A stretch of DNA of 64,000 bases, from assembly GCA_003695825.1 (NCBI GenBank), contig RFHK01000021.1, positions 642 through 64,641 on the forward strand, in the 5' to 3' direction. The notes under the pieces were generated by a model, which saw only the letters and a program-made list of their open reading frames with translations, was not told the DNA's origin and ran no database searches. The position numbers and the translations under genes were made by a program. This document shows, in pieces, positions 54,710 through 63,191 of this stretch (position 1 is the stretch's first letter; every line of letters begins with the position of its first letter). Origin of the DNA: Gammaproteobacteria bacterium (GTDB lineage Bacteria > Pseudomonadota > Gammaproteobacteria > Thiohalobacterales > Thiohalobacteraceae).

Positions 54710-55368
54710 TGCGCGGGTTCGCACGACAACTCCTCATCACCGCCCTGCTGCTGCTCGGCTTCGCCGTGATCGGCGTCGGGCTGGTGGCCGCCACCCACGA
54801 GGCCACGAAGGAGCGCATCGCCGAGAACCACCGCCGCATGCTGCTGCGCTTCATGAACCAGGTCCTGCCCCCCGAGCGCTACGACAACGACATCCTCCGG
54901 GACCGCGTCCAGGTCGTGGACCCGCGCCTGGCCCCGCACGGCGAGGCGGTCACTGTCTACCGCGCCCGCCGGCAGGGGCGCCCGGTCGCCGCCGTCTTCA
55001 CGACGGTGGCCCCCGACGGCTACAATGGGCGCATCGAGCTGCTCGTCGGCGTCGACGTCTCCGGGCGCGTCACGGGGGTACGTGTCGTCGACCACCACGA
55101 GACCCCCGGCCTGGGGGACGCGATCGACATCCGCAAGTCGCACTGGGTCGAGGAGTTCCGCGGCCGGCGCCTGGGAGACCCGCCCCTCAAGCGCTGGGCG
55201 GTCAAGAAGGACGGCGGGGTGTTCGACCAGTTCACGGGCGCCACCATCACGCCCCGCGCGGTGGTCAAGGCCGTACGCCACACCCTGCTGTACTTCCAGG
55301 AACACCGAAAGACGCTCTTCACCCTGCCCGTCCCCCGTGCGGGCGGAGGAACCGGAGAAGGCCCATGA
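54709..55368 (+). CDS. rnfG: Rnf complex subunit G
   Basis: N-terminal TM helix. [37 protein letters not shown] (FMN-binding motif). Confidence 0.9.
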
Positions 55369-56057
55369 CCACCACGGTCGACTACAAGCGTATCGCCATC
55401 GATGGGTTCTGGGACAACAACCCGGCCCTGGTGCAGCTGCTCGGCATGTGCCCCATGCTTGCCGTCACCTCCACCGCTGTCAACGGACTCGGGCTCGGGT
55501 TGGCGACCACGCTCACGCTGGTCCTCTCCAACGGCCTCGTCTCGCTGATCCGCAACATCGTGCGCCCCGAGGTCCGCATCCCGACCTTCGTGCTCATCAT
55601 CGCCTCGGTGGTGACGGTCATCGAGCTGCTGATGAACGCCTATGTGCACGAGCTCTACACCATCCTGGGCATCTTCGTGCCCCTGATCGTGACCAACTGC
55701 TCCATCATCGGCCGGGCCGAGGCCTTCGCTTCCAAGCATGCCCTGCTCCCGTCGCTCGTCGATGGCCTGACCATGGGGCTGGGATTCACCGCCGTGCTCT
55801 TCACGCTCGGCATGCTGCGCGAGTTCGTCGGCCAGGGTACGGTCTTCTCCCAGTTCCACCTGCTCTTCGGCGAGGCCGTGCGCGGCTGGAGCACGACCGT
55901 GCTCACGCACTACGAAGGTTTCCTCGTGGCCGTGCTGCCGCCCGGGGCCTTCTTCGGCCTGGGACTGTTGATCGCGCTGAAGAACCTCGTCGACGCCCGA
56001 CGTGCCCGACGCGCACACCGGCGGGCCGCACGGGCCGGTGCGCCGGCCGCCGCCTGA
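55365..56057 (+). CDS. rnfE: Rnf complex subunit E
   Basis: [38 protein letters not shown]. Confidence 0.93.
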
Positions 56058-56071
56058 GGCCTTGGCCGGGC

Positions 56072-56719
56072 ATGAACGCCGGGAAACGCCGGGAACTCTT
56101 CGCCCGCCTGCAGGCCGCCAATCCCCATCCCACCACGGAGCTCGAGTACGGCAACACCTTCCAGCTCCTGGTCGCCGTCATCCTCTCGGCACAGGCCACC
56201 GACAGGAGCGTCAACAAGGCCACCCGCGCGCTGTTTCGCAAGGTGAAAACCCCGTCGGATATGCTCGCGCTCGGCGAGGAAGGGCTGAAACGGCACATCC
56301 GCACCATCGGCCTGTACAACACCAAGGCGCGCAACCTCCTCCGCACGAGCCGCATCCTCCTGGAAAGGCACGGCGGCAAGGTTCCACGGGACAGAAAGGC
56401 GCTCGAGGCCCTGCCCGGCGTGGGGCGCAAGACGGCCAACGTGATTCTCAACACGGCCTTCGGGGAGCCCGTGATCGCCGTGGATACCCACATCTTTCGC
56501 GTCGCCAACCGGACCGGCCTGGCGCCCGGGAGAAACGTACGCGAGGTGGAGGAAAGGTTGCAGCGCCGGGTCCCTCCCGAGTACCGCAAGGACGCCCACC
56601 ACTGGCTGATCCTGCTGGGACGCTACGTCTGCACCGCCCGCAAGCCCCACTGCCGGCGCTGCCCGATCCAGGATCTCTGTGAGTACCGTCACAAAAACCT
56701 GCAGGACGAGCCGGGGTAG
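56072..56719 (+). CDS. nth: endonuclease III
   Basis: FQLLVAVILSAQATD..LPGVGRKTANVIL..VDTHIFRV.. and the C-terminal CTARKPHCRRCPIQDLC 4Fe-4S loop. Conserved rnf-nth linkage. Confidence 0.95.
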   Translation: MNAGKRRELFARLQAANPHPTTELEYGNTFQLLVAVILSAQATDRSVNKATRALFRKVKTPSDMLALGEEGLKRHIRTIGLYNTKARNLLRTSRILLERHGGKVPRDRKALEALPGVGRKTANVILNTAFGEPVIAVDTHIFRVANRTGLAPGRNVREVEERLQRRVPPEYRKDAHHWLILLGRYVCTARKPHCRRCPIQDLCEYRHKNLQDEPG

Positions 56720-56827
56720 GCTTGAAAACCCGGCAGATATGACCTTTACTGCAGCGAGGCCGAAACCTGGCCGGGTCCATCACGGGCAGGTGCCCGGCCA
56801 CAGACGGGGGGCATCACGGGGAAGACC

Positions 56828-57265
56828 ATGGAAGCGATCAGCGAAAAAGAACGGGTGCGCGAGGTCTACCTGCGCACCTGGGAGAAGTACCGTCAACAGT
56901 CGCCGCTGGATGGCATCGAGGAACAGGTGCTCGACGTCATTCTCTCCCATCCCGAGTACCACGCCCTGCTTTCGGACCGGGATCTGGCCCTGGCCTTCGA
57001 GGCCGATCCTTCAGGCGGCATCGAGAACCCGTTCCTGCACATGGGACTGCACCTCGCGATCCGGGAACAGATCAGCCTGGGGCGGCCACCGGAGGTACGC
57101 CGAACCTACCGCAGGCTGCTCCTGCAGCTGGGGGACGCCCATGAGGTGGAACACCAGATGATGCTCTGCCTCGCCGAGGCGCTCTGGGAGTACACCCAGG
57201 ACCCACGGGTGCAAGGGGAGATCGAACGGAGCTACCTCGACTGCCTTGCGCGGCTCGGAGACTGA
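56828..57265 (+). CDS. DUF1841-like protein
   Basis: 145 aa. ..HPEYHALL..ENPFLHMGLHLAIREQIS.. Family name is from memory. Confidence 0.65.
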   Translation: MEAISEKERVREVYLRTWEKYRQQSPLDGIEEQVLDVILSHPEYHALLSDRDLALAFEADPSGGIENPFLHMGLHLAIREQISLGRPPEVRRTYRRLLLQLGDAHEVEHQMMLCLAEALWEYTQDPRVQGEIERSYLDCLARLGD

Positions 57266-57385
57266 GCCCGTTCGATCCCGTCTCCGGGAACCATCCGCTG
57301 CAGGCGCTGTCCCATGAGCTGTACCGACCCAATGGTATGTTCCAGGGGTCGGCGTGTACCAACCAGGCAACACAAGGAGCACACC

Positions 57386-57820
57386 ATGTCCAGCAAGAAC
57401 CCGTCCCATACGCTCAGGACCGTCAACCTGGCGCTCGGCACCGCCTTCGCCGCCACCCTCTCCAGCACGACCGTGCTCGCGACCGAGAATCCCTTCGCCA
57501 GCCAGGAACTCGAGAGCGGATACCTGCTGGCCAGCCATGCGGAAGGCAAGTGCGGCGGTGCGATGAAGAAGACCGCCGAGGGCAAGTGCGGTGGCGAGAT
57601 GAAAGAGAAGATGAAGGAGGGAAAGTGCGGTGACAGGATGAAGAAGGCCGCCGAGGGCAAGTGCGGCGACAAGATGAAGACCATGAAGGAAGGCAAGTGC
57701 GGCGCCAAGATGAAGATGAAGGAAGGGAAATGTGGCGCCAAGGCCAAGGCAAAGAAGCTGAAGGAAGGCAAGTGCGGCGAGGGCAAGTGCGGCGCCAACC
57801 GGAGGAAGCACGCCCAGTGA
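57386..57820 (+). CDS. secreted Cys-repeat RiPP precursor candidate: Sec signal peptide plus 8x EGKCG repeats (HvfA / oxazolone-thioamide metallophore-like)
   Basis: AAGGAG RBS 6 nt before ATG 57386. MSSKNPSHTLRTVNLALGTAFAATLSSTTVLA signal. Core HAEGKCGG..AEGKCGG..KEGKCGD..AEGKCGD..KEGKCGA..KEGKCGA..KEGKCGEGKCGA with Met/Lys-rich linkers. Immediately precedes the DUF692 and DUF2063 genes. Confidence 0.75.
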   Translation: MSSKNPSHTLRTVNLALGTAFAATLSSTTVLATENPFASQELESGYLLASHAEGKCGGAMKKTAEGKCGGEMKEKMKEGKCGDRMKKAAEGKCGDKMKTMKEGKCGAKMKMKEGKCGAKAKAKKLKEGKCGEGKCGANRRKHAQ

Positions 57821-57833
57821 TCCGGAGGCGATC

Positions 57834-58703
57834 ATGACGCATCCCGATTGCCCCGTGCACGGGGCCGGCCTGGGTCTGCGGCGGGTCTTCATGGACCCGC
57901 TCGCAGACCAGGTGCCCGAAAGCATCGGTTTCTTCGAGGTCGCGCCGGAGAACTGGATCGGCATCGGGGGGGCGGCGGGTCGGCTGTTCCGGCAACTCAC
58001 CGAGCGTCACCCCTTCGTGCTCCATGGTCTCTCCCTCTCGATTGGGGGGCCCGGTCCGCTCGACGAACCCTTCCTGCACCGGCTCGCCCGGTTCATGGAC
58101 GAGCACGGGATCACCTGCTACACCGAGCACCTCAGTTACTGCAGCGACGACGGACACCTCTACGACCTCCTGCCCATCCCCTTCACCGAGGCCTCCGTCC
58201 ATTATGTCGCCGCGCGCATTCGTCGCGTGCAGGACCTCCTCGGCCGGCGCATCGCGATGGAAAATGCTTCCTTCTATACCTACGCGCCCGGCAGCGAGAT
58301 GAGCGAGATCGACTTCCTCAACGCCGTGCTCGAGGAGGCCGACTGCGGATTGCTGTTCGACGTCAACAACCTCTACGTCAACAGCGTCAACCACGGGTAC
58401 GATCCGCTCGACTTCCTGGACCGGATACCGGCGGAACGCATCTTCTACCTGCATGTCGCCGGGCACTACCGCGAGGACGAGGACCTGATCGTCGACACCC
58501 ACGGCGCGGACGTGATCGACCCGGTCTGGGCGCTGCTGGAGGAGACCTACCGCCGTTTCGGCGTGTTGCCCACCTTGCTCGAGCGCGACTTCAACATCCC
58601 TCCGCTGCAGACCCTGCTCGCGGAGGTCGAGCACATCCGCGCGCTCCAGCGGCGCTGGCAGGAACGTCCGGGTATGGAGGCTCGCCGCCATGCACGGGGA
58701 TGA
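57834..58703 (+). CDS. DUF692-family multinuclear non-heme iron oxidase (MbnB/HvfB-like) RiPP-modifying enzyme
   Basis: 289 aa. GLGLRR..FFEVAPENW..LHGLSLSIGG..YTEHLSY..IAMENASFY..LFDVNNLYVNSVNHG..YLHVAGH..VDTHG TIM-barrel signature of DUF692 proteins. Confidence 0.88.
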   Translation: MTHPDCPVHGAGLGLRRVFMDPLADQVPESIGFFEVAPENWIGIGGAAGRLFRQLTERHPFVLHGLSLSIGGPGPLDEPFLHRLARFMDEHGITCYTEHLSYCSDDGHLYDLLPIPFTEASVHYVAARIRRVQDLLGRRIAMENASFYTYAPGSEMSEIDFLNAVLEEADCGLLFDVNNLYVNSVNHGYDPLDFLDRIPAERIFYLHVAGHYREDEDLIVDTHGADVIDPVWALLEETYRRFGVLPTLLERDFNIPPLQTLLAEVEHIRALQRRWQERPGMEARRHARG

Positions 58704-59472
58704 ACGCCCCGCCTTCCAGAGGCACCAGTTCGCCTTCACCGCCCACCTGCGCGACCCCGAGCGGGTCCCGGTCCCTCCCGGGGTCGAGGAAAGGCGCATG
58801 GCGGTCTACCGCGAGCTCGTCTACAACAACATCGAGAGCTTCCTCGCCTCCGCCTTTCCGGTGCTACGCTCCATCGACAGCGACGCGGCCTGGCACCGTC
58901 GCGTGCGCCGCTTCCTGATCGACCACCGTGCCCGCTCGCCCTTCTTCGCCGACATCCCCCGCGAGTTCCTGCAGTACCTCGAACGGCAATACGAACCGCA
59001 GGAGGGGGATCCTCCTTTCCTGCTGGAACTCGCGCACTACGAATGGGTGGAACTGGCCCTCTCCGTGAGCGAGGAGACCCTGCCGGATCGGGTGAACGTG
59101 GATGCAACGGACCTGCTCGAACATCCCTTGCGCCTGTCTCCCCTGGCCTGGCCGCTGGCCTACACCTGGCCGGTGCACCGCATCGGGCCGGGTTCCATCC
59201 CGGATGCACCCGCCGGGGAACCGGTGCGACTCGTCGCCTGGCGCGACCGCGAAGACAAGGTGCGCTTTCTCCAGGTCAATGCCGCGAGTGCACGTCTGCT
59301 CGCACTGCTCGATGTACTTACCGATTCAACTCCAGCGATCGATGCCGTACGCGCACTCGCAAGAGAGCTCGATTACCGGGACGAGGATCACCTGGTCTCT
59401 TTCGCTTCCGAGCTGCTCCATTCCTGGTACGAAAAAGACATCCTCCTGCTCGGTCCCACGGGCTCGTCATGA
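58690..59472 (+). CDS. DUF2063-family partner protein (MbnC/HvfC-like)
   Basis: 260 aa. FQRHQFAFTAHLRDP..MAVYRELVYNNIESFL..FLLELAHYEWVELAL. Overlaps the DUF692 gene by 14 nt. Confidence 0.75.
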   Translation: MHGDERPAFQRHQFAFTAHLRDPERVPVPPGVEERRMAVYRELVYNNIESFLASAFPVLRSIDSDAAWHRRVRRFLIDHRARSPFFADIPREFLQYLERQYEPQEGDPPFLLELAHYEWVELALSVSEETLPDRVNVDATDLLEHPLRLSPLAWPLAYTWPVHRIGPGSIPDAPAGEPVRLVAWRDREDKVRFLQVNAASARLLALLDVLTDSTPAIDAVRALARELDYRDEDHLVSFASELLHSWYEKDILLLGPTGSS

Positions 59473-59566
59473 ACTGATTCACACCGAACCCCTGCTTTTC
59501 CAAGGAACTTCTTTCATACCTCCTGGTCTGTTTGCATAGATAAACCACCGCGCAACGGAGAGAGAG

Positions 59567-60031
59567 ATGCCCGAACCGATCGCCCTCGCTTGCCGCTTGA
59601 AAGGTTGGCTGGATGGTACTGGGGCCTATTTCTCGCTGCTCGGTCTACGCCTGTTCATCGCCTGGGAGTTCTGGGAATCCGGCATGACGAAGCTGCATGG
59701 TGAAAACTGGTTCTCCGAGATCCAGGGCGACTTCCCTTTCCCCTTCAACGTGATCCCGACCGACATCAGCTGGTTCATCGCCACCTGGACGGAACTCCTC
59801 GGGGCCCTGGCCATGGTACTGGGACTGGGCACGCGCTTTGCCGCCTTCGCCATGATCGTGCTCGACGTCGTCGCCTGGGTCTCCGTGCACGCCGGCAACG
59901 GCTACAACGTGTGCGACAACGGCTGGAAACTGCCCTTGATCTACCTGCTCATGCTGCTGGCATTGTTCTTCTCCGGTCCCGGCAAGCTGAGCCTGGACCA
60001 CTGGATCGCGCACCGTTACTGCAAGACCTGA
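59567..60031 (+). CDS. DoxX-family membrane protein
   Basis: 154 aa, 4 TM helices. LGLRLFIAWEFWESGMTKL..TELLGALAMVLGLGTRFAAF..FFSGPGKLSLDHW. Confidence 0.8.
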   Translation: MPEPIALACRLKGWLDGTGAYFSLLGLRLFIAWEFWESGMTKLHGENWFSEIQGDFPFPFNVIPTDISWFIATWTELLGALAMVLGLGTRFAAFAMIVLDVVAWVSVHAGNGYNVCDNGWKLPLIYLLMLLALFFSGPGKLSLDHWIAHRYCKT

Positions 60032-60139
60032 CACTGCACCACCTGCCTGGCCGACGGGCATTTTCCGACAACCTCGCCAGGCCTTCCGGCCACCCTCCTG
60101 CCACTGCCATCTCGATGGCAGAGAAATAAAATTTGATAT

Positions 60140-60164
60140 GCGAATGATATTTGTTATCATTCGC
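60140..60164. promoter_or_regulatory. perfect 10-5-10 inverted repeat GCGAATGATA-tttgt-TATCATTCGC with Fur-like half-sites, upstream of the porin-like gene
   Basis: Read directly in an AT-rich patch (aaataaaatttgatatgcgaatgatatttgttatcattcgc), 60 nt before ATG 60224. The operator role is inferred. Confidence 0.4.
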
Positions 60165-60223
60165 TTTCCACACTGCCCCTATCCATGCGAGCTTGGGAGT
60201 CGCCTTTCCTCAAGAAAATTCAC

Positions 60224-61321
60224 ATGGATGCTGGAAACCTATGTCGGTTGCTCTGGCTCCTGTTGCTGGTGGTCTCCGGCCCTTCCCTAGCCGACGAGAG
60301 AGACCGCCGGCACGGCGCGGTCTTGGATGGCATCACCGGTTTTCATGTCGAGAGTGCCGCAACCCTCACCTTTCAGCACGCCACCAGGGCGCCCGATCGG
60401 AATGAGGCCAGTATATCATTCGATCTCGTCCAGACCCTGCCGATGGGCAGAGGCCTGTGGACCCTCTACGTCGAAGGCTCGACCACGCCTCGGGCTGCAG
60501 GGGTGACTGCCACCTTCCCGGCGGCAAATGCCGACGTCGGCACGACACCCGATCACCGGGGACGTGGACGGCTGCAGGTCTCCGAACTGCACTATGGCAT
60601 GGAAACCTCGGACTGGCAGATCGTCACCGGGCTCATCGATGTCACTGCCCATCTCGATCTAAGCGAGGTCGCCAACAACGAGACGACGCAGTTCCTGGCC
60701 ACTCCCCTGGTCAACAATCCGACCATCGCCTTCCCGGACTATGTACCGGGCCTGGCCTGGCATCGCCATGCAAGAAAACACAAGCCCGGGATCGCCCTGG
60801 TGCTCGCCGGCTCACATGGACTCGCGGACAACGCCGGACACTATGCGCGCACCTTTCACCTGAACGCGCACGGCAAGGGCTTCTTCCTCGCTGCCGAACT
60901 GTACGGAAGACGGCAAACCAATGTCTGGCGCACCGGCCTGTGGATGCGAACCGATGCCCTGGTGCGCCGGGATGGCAGCGGCAACGGCCATGCGCGGGGG
61001 ATCTATGGCGTGTTCGACGCCATGCCTGGCGAGCACCTGAGGAGCAACCTACGTCTGGGTATCACCCTGGATGACGTCAGCAAGGCACGGGACTTCGCCA
61101 GCGCCGCGATCCTGCGGGAAAGTGGAGCACTCGCCCTGGGCGCAGGGTTGGCGCTGACCCGTCTTCATGGATCGAAAGACGAACGGCTGGTCGAAATTTT
61201 CGCGCGCTATCGGGTCAACAAGGCCCTGCAACTGGGGCCGCACATCCAATGGGTCGGTCAGCCCGAATCGCAGGGTCCCGATGGCTGGATCACGGGATTG
61301 CGGGTGCGCCTGACCCTATGA
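60224..61321 (+). CDS. secreted, probably outer-membrane beta-barrel (porin-like) protein, family not recognised
   Basis: Signal peptide MDAGNLCRLLWLLLLVVSGPSLA. Alternating-strand pattern, Gly/aromatic-rich turns, ends ..WITGLRVRLTL. Start at the second ATG (60224); the track start is 60185. Confidence 0.55.
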   Translation: MDAGNLCRLLWLLLLVVSGPSLADERDRRHGAVLDGITGFHVESAATLTFQHATRAPDRNEASISFDLVQTLPMGRGLWTLYVEGSTTPRAAGVTATFPAANADVGTTPDHRGRGRLQVSELHYGMETSDWQIVTGLIDVTAHLDLSEVANNETTQFLATPLVNNPTIAFPDYVPGLAWHRHARKHKPGIALVLAGSHGLADNAGHYARTFHLNAHGKGFFLAAELYGRRQTNVWRTGLWMRTDALVRRDGSGNGHARGIYGVFDAMPGEHLRSNLRLGITLDDVSKARDFASAAILRESGALALGAGLALTRLHGSKDERLVEIFARYRVNKALQLGPHIQWVGQPESQGPDGWITGLRVRLTL

Positions 61322-61363
61322 CCAGGATTCGTAGAGTTCGTCCAACCCGGGTCCTGGAGGTTG

Positions 61364-61750
61364 TCAACCTCTCTTGCCCAGCAGCTCGATCTGGTAACCA
61401 TCCGGGTCTTCCACGAACGCGATGATGGTAGTGCCGGCGTTCATGGGACCCGGCTCGCGGATGATCTTGCCGCCCCGTGCACGGATCGCCTCGGCCGCCT
61501 GGTAGACGTCGTCCACCTCGATGGCGATGTGCCCGAACCCGGTGCCGAGATCGTAGTGGTCGACGCCCCAGTTGTAGGTCAGCTCCAGCACGCAGCCCTC
61601 CGACTCGTCCCCGTAGCCGACGAAGGCCAGGGTGAACTTGCCCTCGGGATAGTCCTTGCGGCGCAGCAACTTCATGCCCAGCACCTCGGTATAGAAGGCG
61701 ATGGAACGCTCGAGGTCACCGACCCGGATCATGGTGTGCAGAATGCGCAT
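61364..61750 (-). CDS. gloA: lactoylglutathione lyase (glyoxalase I)
   Basis: [79 protein letters not shown]. Confidence 0.95.
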
Positions 61751-61769
61751 CGCTTCACTCCTGAAAGCC

Positions 61770-61920
61770 TAAGGGAAGCTCTGATGAAATGGCTGCGGCG
61801 GTGTCTCGCTGTGTTGCGCGGTGCTCGGATGCTCGCCTATCTGCATGATAGGTCTCGCATCCTGCGCTCCGTGCGCCTTGCGCTCCAACCACCTCGCTCA
61901 TTGAATCAGAGCTTCCCTAA
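61770..61920. repeat. 22-nt imperfect inverted repeats (taagggaagctctgatgaaatg / cattgaatcagagcttccctaa) bracketing a 107-bp GC-rich palindromic core
   Basis: Read directly. Arms at 61770-61791 and 61899-61920, with about 20 of 22 complementary. The inner hairpin is ggatgc..ctat/atag..gcatcc. Lies in the argG-gloA spacer. Confidence 0.7.
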
Positions 61921-61990
61921 CTTCTGACCTCTGACTTCTGACTTCTGACTTCTAGCTTCTAGCTCCCAGCTCCCAGCTCCTAGCTTCCTT
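61921..61990. repeat. heptanucleotide tandem array (cttctga cctctga cttctga cttctga cttctag cttctag ctcccag ctcccag ctcctag cttcctt)
   Basis: Read directly. Exact period 7 over 10 units. The argG TAG stop (61980-61982) lies in the CTCCTAG unit. Confidence 0.9.
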
Positions 61991-63191
61991 TCATGGCGGC
62001 CAAGCGTAGGCGCAGGGCATTGAGCTTGATGAAACCCTCGGCGTCCTTCTGGTCGTAGGCACCTTCATCGGCCTCGAAGGTGGCGATGCGCGCGTCGAAC
62101 AGGGAATCGGTCTCGGAACGGCGGCCGGTGATCTGAACATTGCCCTTGTAGAGCCGCACCCGCACCTCGCCGTTGACGGTCTCCTGGGAGGCATCGATCA
62201 TCTCCTGCAGCAGGCGCCGTTCCGGGCTCCACCAGTAGCCGTTGTAGATGAGCTCGGCATAACGGGGCATGAGCTCGTCCTTGAGGTGCGCCACCTCGCG
62301 GTCCAGCGTCAGCGATTCCATGGCCCGGTGTGCCTTGAGCAGGATGGTGCCGCCCGGCGTCTCGTAACAACCGCGAGACTTCATGCCCACGTAGCGGTTC
62401 TCGACGAGGTCGACGCGCCCGATGCCATGCTCGCCGCCGAGCCGGTTCAGGGTCTCGAGTACCTGGGCCGGGGTCATGCGTTCGCCGTCGATCGCCACCA
62501 CGTCGCCCTGCTCGAAGGTGAGTACCAGCTCGCGGGGTGTATCCGGTGCCCTCTCGGGAGACACCGTCCGGCGCCACATATCCTCTTCCGGCGGCGTCCA
62601 GGGGTCCTCCAGGATGCCGCCCTCGTAGGAGACGTGCAGCAGGTTGGCATCCATCGAGTAGGGCGACTTCTTCCCCTTCTTGAAATCGACCGGGATACCG
62701 TGGGCCTCGGCATAGGCCATCAGCTTCTCGCGCGAGTCGAGCTCCCACTCGCGCCAAGGTGCGATGATCCGGATATCTGGCTTCAGTGCATAGGCACCCA
62801 GCTCGAAACGCACCTGGTCGTTGCCCTTGCCGGTCGCGCCATGGGCGATGGCATCCGCGCCGGTCTCCTCGGCGATCTCCACCAGGCGCTTGGCGATCAG
62901 GGGCCGGGCGATGGAGGTACCGAGCAGGTACTCGCCCTCGTAGACGGCGTTGGCACGGAACATAGGGAAGACATAGTCGCGCACGAATTCTTCGCGCAGA
63001 TCCTCGATGTAGATCTCCTTCACGCCCAGGGCCTCGGCCTTGGCGCGTGCCGGCTCCACCTCCTCGCCCTGGCCGATGTCCGCCGTGAAGGTCACCACCT
63101 CGCAGCCGTAGGTCTCCTGCAGCCACTTGAGGATGATCGACGTATCCAGCCCGCCCGAGTAGGCGAGCACCACTTTCCTGATCTCGCTCAT
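61980..63191 (-). CDS. argG: argininosuccinate synthase
   Basis: [67 protein letters not shown]. 403 aa. Confidence 0.97.

Follow-up and report, generated by a model that had tools for sequence, protein, structure and literature searches.

The locus considered here raises a simple question: what is the product of an open reading frame (ORF) that spells the same five residues, EGKCG, eight times? The ORF lies at positions 57386 to 57820 of a 64,000-nucleotide stretch of gammaproteobacterial DNA (assembly GCA_003695825.1, contig RFHK01000021.1, positions 642 to 64,641, family Thiohalobacteraceae), which we refer to as the window. An earlier reading of this DNA from its letters alone (the original prediction) had described the array as a core peptide with Met/Lys-rich linkers that is matured by a modifying enzyme. 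We conclude that the ORF very probably encodes the precursor of an EGKCG-repeat metallophore, a ribosomally synthesized and posttranslationally modified peptide (RiPP), as the first gene of an hvfA-hvfB-hvfC-hvfX operon, with the chemistry, export, and copper binding predicted from its homologs.

Operon and family assignment

Families were assigned with the NCBIfam models and their curated cutoffs, using Pfam as a second library. The precursor matches NF050137, "HvfA family oxazolone/thioamide-modified RiPP metallophore" (KCGExKCG_twice), in three stretches and scores 51.5 bits (cutoff of 19.5). The three genes that follow it code for homologs of the rest of the system, namely, an "HvfB family MNIO-type RiPP peptide maturase" (NF003818, 423.8 bits, cutoff of 360), an "HvfC family RiPP maturation protein" (NF050145, 299.2 bits, cutoff of 142), and an "HvfX family Cu-binding RiPP maturation protein" (NF050144, 146 bits, cutoff of 80). 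Pfam places HvfB in PF05114 (MbnB_TglH_ChrH, E value of 2e-105), HvfC, a type 1 PME partner, in PF09836 (N-terminal DUF2063) plus PF22106 (NGO1945_C, the RRE-containing C-terminal domain), and HvfX in PF07681 (DoxX). The membership of the four genes is observed directly, as are the anatomy of the precursor and the conservation and variability of its homologs. The closest solved structure to HvfB, a member of the TIM-barrel MNIO fold family, is PDB 3BWW (E value of 3.7e-79), and the alignment retains the HGLSLS, HLS, EN, DVNN, H-AGH, DTHG, and ERDFN motifs, which we take to hold the iron ligands, while HvfC is closest to PDB 3DEE (E value of 2.7e-12). Both are the structures cited for this type of cluster in the fontiphorin paper (PMC13097082).

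The family to which the precursor belongs has been described under several names (HvfA/oxazolin, "Buf_EGKCG," and "captophorin"), and its four characterized members have all of their EGKCG Cys residues converted to Cu(I)-binding 5-thiooxazoles. A "Buf_EGKCG/oxazolin" profile collects about 2,000 proteins of 31 to 506 amino acids with Sec signal peptides, whose core clusters consist of RiPP, MNIO, DUF2063, and DoxX genes (PMC12452194), and EGKCG is the most frequent 5-mer in 6,906 repeat-containing captophorin precursors (PMC13097082).

Anatomy of the precursor

The positions of the features are collected in Table 1. The start codon at 57386 was favored over an in-frame ATG upstream, at 57314, because it is preceded at 6 nucleotides (nt) by AAGGAG. 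Translated from there, the 144-residue precursor reads MSSKNPSHTLRTVNLALGTAFAATLSSTTVLATENPFASQELESGYLLASHAEGKCGGAMKKTAEGKCGGEMKEKMKEGKCGDRMKKAAEGKCGDKMKTMKEGKCGAKMKMKEGKCGAKAKAKKLKEGKCGEGKCGANRRKHAQ (57386 to 57820, plus strand), and the GC content at third codon positions (GC3) of the ORF is 0.88.

The N-terminal region aligns with the signal peptides of the homologs and was modeled by AlphaFold as a single helix (residues 6 to 26). Sec signal peptides are a trait of the EGKCG family (PMC12452194, PMC11252979). Between the signal peptide and the core lies a segment, NPFxxxELxxGY(M/L), whose conservation is exceeded only by that of the KCG units. Its residues P36, F37, L42, G45, and Y46 are invariant among 28 aligned precursors, and the NPFxxxELxxGY motif is present in 51 of the 65 precursors that were recovered independently beside HvfB genes. 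This conserved segment is probably the docking site for the HvfC RiPP recognition element (RRE) domain. In FonA, an Ala scan found no single pre-core residue to be essential, and the account of fontiphorin (PMC13097082) contains no mention of NPF.

All eight Cys residues of the precursor are located within EGKCG units. The predicted mature form has 112 residues, a mass of 11.9 kDa before modification, a pI of 9.6, and a net charge of about +14.

Table 1. Positions of the precursor, its parts, and the surrounding genes in the window (position 1 is the first nucleotide of the 64,000)
Feature	Position	Strand	Remarks
nth	56072-56719	+	Upstream of the DUF1841 gene; same strand as hvfA
DUF1841 gene	56828-57265	+	Directly upstream of hvfA; same strand
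Shine-Dalgarno sequence AAGGAG	57374-57379	+	6 nt ahead of ATG 57386; read directly
hvfA-like precursor gene	57386-57820	+	Encodes 144 aa, signal peptide included; stop codon at 57818-57820
Predicted Sec signal peptide, aa 1-32	57386-57481	+	Basic n-region (K4/R11), hydrophobic core VNLALGTAFAATL, V-L-A before the predicted cleavage site
Precursor aa 33-52, TENPFASQELESGYLLASHA			Spans the NPFxxxELxxGY segment
Conserved postsignal segment NPFASQELESGYL, aa 35-47	57488-57526	+	NPFxxxELxxGY(M/L), between signal peptide and core
Core of eight EGKCG units	57542-57793	+	Linkers of 7, 8, 7, 7, 6, 9, and 0 residues
Starts of the EGKCG units	57542, 57578, 57617, 57653, 57689, 57722, 57764, 57779	+	From translation
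Basic C-terminal tail ANRRKHAQ	57794-57817	+	Homologs have short, variable, Lys-rich tails
hvfB	57834-58703	+	MNIO (multinuclear nonheme iron oxidative enzyme, formerly DUF692), 289 aa; 13 nt past the hvfA stop
hvfC	58690-59472	+	DUF2063/NGO1945-type partner with RRE domain, 260 aa; 14-nt overlap with hvfB
hvfX	59567-60031	+	DoxX-family membrane protein, 154 aa; 94-nt gap after hvfC
Porin-like ORF	60185-61321	+	378 aa; weak Pfam OprB match (E value of 2.9e-8) in the C-terminal third

The repeat array at the DNA and peptide levels

Translation recovered eight EGKCG units with exactly the eight DNA spellings listed in the original prediction, and the linkers (GAMKKTA, GEMKEKMK, DRMKKAA, DKMKTMK, AKMKMK, and AKAKAKKLK, with the final two units fused) also matched exactly. 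The end coordinate given there, 57796, merely includes the Ala codon after the final unit. When the eight spellings are aligned, the variable columns are 3, 6, 9, 12, and 15 of the 15, and all of the changes are synonymous. The probability that five columns drawn at random from 15 would be exactly these third positions is 1/3003. Selection had been proposed to act on the peptide rather than on a DNA repeat, and this agrees both with the purely synonymous variation within the gene and with the retention of the EGKCG/KCG unit in the homologs. At the DNA level, the array is a degenerate tandem repeat with periods of 36 and 75 and 73 to 79% matches. No other GKCG or EGxCG was found in the six frames of the 64-kb window.

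The antisense ORFs that cover the array (the PHLPS-type frames), which had been regarded as mirror artifacts, are just that. The three minus-strand ORFs at 57232 to 57798, 57011 to 58000, and 57423 to 58799 gave no Pfam match at an E value of ≤0.1, and the high GC3 of the first (0.825) simply reflects third positions shared with the sense frame. We therefore rejected them as real genes. Two "terminator-like" matches inside the core (57585 to 57573 and 57660 to 57648, minus strand) derive from the repeats, and their frequency is not above that in shuffled sequences.

Homologs and related loci

A search with the precursor returned 2,952 homologs at an E value of ≤1e-3, the best of which is 75% identical; the exact protein has no record in the assembly collection. 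As matches to such a sequence can reflect composition bias, a second sample was anchored on the enzyme and comprised the 80 genome loci whose HvfB is most closely related to the one here (64 to 81% identity). These are mostly from Thiohalobacter, Ectothiorhodospiraceae-like, Thioalkalispiraceae, Nitrosomonas, and Gallionellaceae metagenome-assembled genomes (MAGs), with the closest HvfB (81% identical) coming from a Thiohalobacter MAG. An ORF with at least three KCG units on the hvfB strand was present at 65 of the 80 loci, sitting a few hundred bases upstream of hvfB wherever the locus reaches that far. An hvfC homolog lies downstream of hvfB in all 80, and 47 have an hvfX homolog.

Related precursors contain between 2 and 12 repeats. 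The nearest ones, L001 among them and P0001 and P0002 at 74 to 75% identity, have five units and Met/Lys-rich linkers such as GMMNKTK, DRMKKGAM, and DKMKKMKKAA. Aligning homologs had been suggested as a check on the array, and it gave a clear answer: repeat number varies even between close relatives, the Met/Lys flavor of the linkers persists, and the Cys unit and the NPF segment are kept. Loss of the Cys unit in homologs had been named as grounds for abandoning the idea, and the unit is conserved both in the 2,952 homologs and in the precursors at 65 of the 80 HvfB loci.

Two side observations concern these loci. In eight precursors (L035, L037, L038, L039, L048, L053, L054, and L060), an EF-hand-like insert (DADGDGxVTKDEF...DxNxDGxID) separates EGKCG units. 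Fusions of this type have been published as Buf_EGKC|EF-hand_5 (PMC12452194), and here the EF-hands are flanked by EGKCG on both sides, not at the C terminus alone. One of them, L035 (CAVYIJ010000003.1), is a contig of a MAG labeled "uncultured Halobacteria archaeon"; besides an EGKCG precursor and nth, it contains an hvfB with 65% identity to that of the window. The archaeal label most likely reflects a mistake in binning or in the taxonomy of the public entry.

Predicted modification, export, and copper binding

The chemistry, export route, and copper binding of the product are predicted by analogy with the characterized homologs. The precursor would be synthesized with a Sec signal peptide, and before export a complex of HvfB, an iron- and O2-dependent MNIO, and HvfC, its RRE-containing partner, would act on it, with HvfC probably docking on the NPFxxxELxxGY segment. 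Each of the eight Cys residues would undergo a four-electron oxidation and combine with the carbonyl of the Lys before it, yielding a 5-thiooxazole. At -4 Da per site, the eight sites give a predicted total of -32 Da. The modified, strongly basic peptide would then be exported by Sec and its signal peptide removed, and in the periplasm the N and S donors of the thiooxazoles would chelate Cu(I), buffering copper stress. If two heterocycles share roughly one Cu, each peptide is predicted to bind about 4 Cu.

In HvfA, HvfB and HvfC jointly place a -4-Da modification on each of six EGKCG Cys residues, and the modified peptide competes with bicinchoninic acid (BCA) for Cu(I) while the unmodified one does not (PMC11252979). 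FonA is modified at seven sites, and gonophorin carries the same 5-thiooxazole chemistry (PMC13097082). MmrA precursors have five to eight EGKCG Cys residues across strains, and their product, bulbicupramide, binds Cu(I) (PMC12538549).

Methionine in the linkers

The original prediction had offered two roles for the Met-rich linkers, namely, additional thioether ligands for Cu(I) or recognition elements for the modifying enzyme. The second is unlikely. FonBC modifies a minimal substrate with two directly adjacent repeats (core PAKCGPGKCG-type variants; PMC13097082), and for HvfBC, very small HvfA fragments suffice (PMC11252979). As such substrates have no linker between the repeats, the linkers are probably not recognition elements, and the NPFxxxELxxGY segment upstream of the core is the better candidate for that role.

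The first role was assessed with 62 distinct enzyme-anchored precursor cores, which provide 1,325 linker residues. Their composition is 31.8% K, 13.7% G, 12.9% A, 9.5% E, and 8.1% M, while L, I, V, F, W, and Y together account for only 0.9% (12 residues versus 107 Met), so Met is essentially the only hydrophobic residue tolerated. The neighboring genes in the window have 2.0% Met. Arg is nearly excluded (4 of the 1,325 residues, 0.3%), and as it is as close to Lys in mutational terms (AAG to AGG) as Met is (AAG to ATG), proximity to Lys does not explain the enrichment; the exclusion also fits the failure of FonBC on Arg at motif position 1 (PMC13097082). Met peaks four residues after a Cys (Cys+4) and five before the Cys that follows (Cys-5). 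The precursor studied here is at the high end, with 8 Met among 44 linker residues (18%) and Met at Cys+4 in five of its six linkers. This composition argues clearly for selection of Met in the linkers across the family.

The ligand role itself is hypothetical. If linker Met residues were functional Cu(I) ligands, they would form mixed thiooxazole/Met sites that bind more than one Cu per two Cys, a reading we consider rather unlikely. Met-rich Cu(I) sites are established in the periplasmic copper proteins CusF, CopC/PcoC, and CueO, and the enrichment and fixed Cys+4/Cys-5 offsets described above, together with the rarity of Arg, speak for this role. Against it, Lys alternates with Met at Cys+4 (100 K and 21 M among 139 residues), which fits a steric need for a long, flexible side chain rather than for a ligand, the short linkers of 18 of the 62 precursors are devoid of Met, and Cu(I) binding in the characterized members is attributed to the heterocycles alone. 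In favor of the ligand role, Met is commoner in linkers flanked only by single units than in those adjacent to doublets (17 of 26 versus 47 of 113 linkers; in a second sample, 133 of 198 versus 111 of 198), with a Fisher P value of about 0.03 in each of two samples that overlap and are phylogenetically nonindependent. These P values ignore sequence relatedness, and the per-protein correlation between Met and architecture is absent or weak (rho of -0.04 and -0.17), so that a compensation by Met for missing doublets was set aside as weakly supported.

A narrower version would confine the role to the single-unit subfamily, in which Met at Cys+4/Cys-5 would act as a thioether co-ligand and each thiooxazole would have its own mixed N,S/S(Met) Cu(I) site. 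We regard this as doubtful. If true, the peptide could take up nearly one Cu for each Cys instead of one per Cys pair, and captophorin-type metallophores would have a second ligand set that has not been described. Most likely, the Lys/Met-rich linkers function as soluble, flexible spacers, in which Met could possibly serve as an extra thioether ligand, as an oxidant scavenger, or as a Lys-like long, flexible side chain compatible with the enzyme. Linker Met goes undiscussed in the published accounts of the characterized EGKCG peptides: neither Met nor linkers are mentioned in three of the four, and the word "methionine" is absent from the fourth (PMC12538549).

Weighing the assignment

Several points weigh against the assignment as an HvfA-type copper peptide. 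The whole of it rests, for this locus, on sequence and analogy. The signal peptide was called by eye, from a manual reading of the sequence and the alignment. Copper stoichiometry is uncertain in the homologs themselves, as HvfA modification is heterogeneous and binding by EGKCG peptides has been described as "stochastic," with aggregation (PMC11252979, PMC13097082). The strict HvfA equivalog model NF050188 fell short of its cutoff of 95, with 35.2 bits over residues 74 to 137, so the protein is a family member and not an ortholog of Haemophilus HvfA. No sigma-70-like promoter was detected in the 120 nt upstream of hvfA (57266 to 57385). Finally, the array departs from the 17-residue double-motif repeat of "type 1" Buf_EGKCG proteins (PMC12452194), as only one of its seven junctions is a doublet and the other units are spaced by 11 to 14 residues. 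An AlphaFold2 run for the precursor, based on an alignment of 28 sequences, gave no fold (predicted local distance difference test score of 46, predicted template modeling score of 0.16, no strands, and no helix other than that of the signal peptide), and this model is too poor for a fold search aimed at the beta-helix reported for the 17-residue-repeat members.

Single-unit architectures are common among the homologs (for example, P0003 to P0006 and L034), and judging from these sequences the layout is a variation within the EGKCG family and not a separate class. As for expression, an Rfam scan of positions 55000 to 62000 at an E value of ≤1 gave nothing, with no riboswitch or leader RNA evident, and hvfA may be transcribed through an alternative sigma factor or by read-through from the DUF1841 gene.

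A different chemistry for the same cluster, in which the Cys residues become oxazolone/thioamide pairs as in methanobactin, has in its favor that it was the original reading of the oxazolin modification in HvfA (PMC11252979) and that the NCBIfam names retain it. The two products are also isomeric, both at -4 Da. Two independent groups have since reassigned oxazolin to 5-thiooxazole (PMC13097082; bioRxiv 10.64898/2026.06.05.730506), with fontiphorin and gonophorin likewise assigned. HvfB, in turn, scores far better with the HvfB and BufB models (423.8 and 275.2 bits, the latter below the BufB cutoff of 310) than with the MbnB model TIGR04159 (48.4 bits, well below its cutoff of 325), and we find oxazolone/thioamide pairs very unlikely here. 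That the ORF codes for an unmodified, Lys/Cys-rich, metallothionein-like periplasmic protein with unrelated neighbors, or that an antisense ORF is the real gene, is hardly credible: the core is low in complexity and predicted to be disordered, and several sources name the homologs just "uncharacterized low-complexity protein," but unmodified HvfA shows no competition with BCA for Cu(I) (PMC11252979), the hvfB/hvfC gene order is conserved in related loci with every family model above its cutoff, and it is the sense frame that has the Shine-Dalgarno sequence, signal peptide, and NPF motif, while the antisense frames have no family match.

Neighboring elements

(i) Upstream genes. A DUF1841 homolog occupies the same place in 22 of the 80 HvfB loci. 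Its status as a dedicated gene of the cluster is doubtful, since nth (endonuclease III) is also conserved upstream, in 32 of the 80, and synteny among related gammaproteobacteria is sufficient to explain it. The rnf-nth-DUF1841 arrangement is probably conserved synteny rather than a functional link, and DUF1841 is not mentioned in the paper on the MNIO landscape.

(ii) Downstream ORF. The porin-like ORF, whose product is poorly characterized, has no NCBIfam match, no PDB relative, and no homolog in any of the 80 hvfB loci. Given this and its own promoter-like site, we rejected it as part of the hvf cluster. Ahead of it, a perfect 10-nt inverted repeat, GCGAATGATA/TATCATTCGC, is found at 60140 to 60164, within a site at 60133 to 60164. 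Its core TGATATTTGTTATCA (60145 to 60159) has two mismatches to the 7-1-7 Fur-box consensus, which we take to be TGATAATnATTATCA. The site is unique in the window, where 0.01 would be expected by chance, and overlaps the -10 hexamer of the best sigma-70-like promoter of the region (TTGATA-16-TATCAT), 25 nt upstream of the ORF. This suggests that a separately transcribed, iron (Fur)-regulated outer membrane channel adjoins the copper peptide operon.

Significance

This locus is a further environmental member of a known, curated, and biochemically characterized family, for which NCBIfam maintains a curated model, about 2,000 sequences have been catalogued, and four representatives are characterized. 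The main use of the analysis is the correct annotation of the genes as hvfABCX, a probable copper stress buffer. The only part that goes beyond the published accounts cited here is the Met-rich linkers, with Met at preferred offsets from Cys. As the metal-binding mode of EGKCG peptides has been described as heterogeneous, these offsets provide a testable hypothesis on copper stoichiometry or on protection from oxidants.

Comparison with known systems

CusF, CopC/PcoC, and the Met-rich insert of CueO are periplasmic proteins with clustered-Met Cu(I) segments. What they have in common with the EGKCG precursor is a periplasmic location, predicted here, and clustered Met in MxM/MK-type stretches. 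They have no sequence homology to it, and in the precursor Met alternates with Lys and is dispensable in many family members.

Methanobactin (MbnA/MbnBC) is likewise a ribosomal peptide in which an MNIO oxidizes Cys to heterocycles that chelate Cu(I) through N and S. It differs in its oxazolone/thioamide groups, in a leader peptide that is not a Sec signal, in a short single core, and in having a dedicated exporter and uptake. The bufferins of Caulobacter and others (Buf1, DUF2282; Buf2, Buf_6/12Cys; PMC11626156, PMC12452194) are RiPPs with signal peptides and thiooxazoles that confer copper protection, and their MNIO and DUF2063 proteins are closely related to those found here, often together with DoxX. 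Their precursors are folded small proteins with other Cys motifs, and unlike in bufferin clusters, no sigma/anti-sigma genes were seen beside this one.

Within the EGKCG family, MmrA of Microbulbifer (PMC12538549) also has EGKCG Cys residues modified by an MNIO/DUF2063 pair and gives a Cu(I)-binding product. Its Cys residues are arranged in three two-Cys cassettes flanked by triple-Lys stretches, in contrast to our precursor, and no doxX is mentioned for the cluster. FonA of Fontimonas thermophila, gonophorin of Neisseria gonorrhoeae, and the Lys-Cys group of captophorins (PMC13097082) share the EGKCG 5-mer repeats. In fontiphorin and gonophorin, the 5-thiooxazoles are made by an MNIO-PME1 pair, giving products that bind Cu, and the clusters frequently include a DoxX gene (PMC13097082). 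FonA and our precursor differ in repeat number and linker composition, with Met content outside the comparison.

A further parallel is oxazolin HvfA of nontypeable Haemophilus influenzae (NTHi) (NTHI1441; PMC11252979). HvfA has 95 residues, three AEGKCGEGKCG doublets (six sites), and two unmodified, disulfide-forming Cys residues in its N-terminal region, while the precursor described here has 144 residues, eight sites, six single units with Met/Lys-rich linkers, and no extra Cys. The gene order also differs, with doxX adjoining hvfA in NTHi and coming last here, as does the host, a high-GC environmental gammaproteobacterium as opposed to Haemophilus. Across these differences, both systems share the Sec signal peptide, the EGKCG units that carry the modified Cys residues (predicted in our case), the MNIO, the DUF2063/RRE partner, and the DoxX gene.

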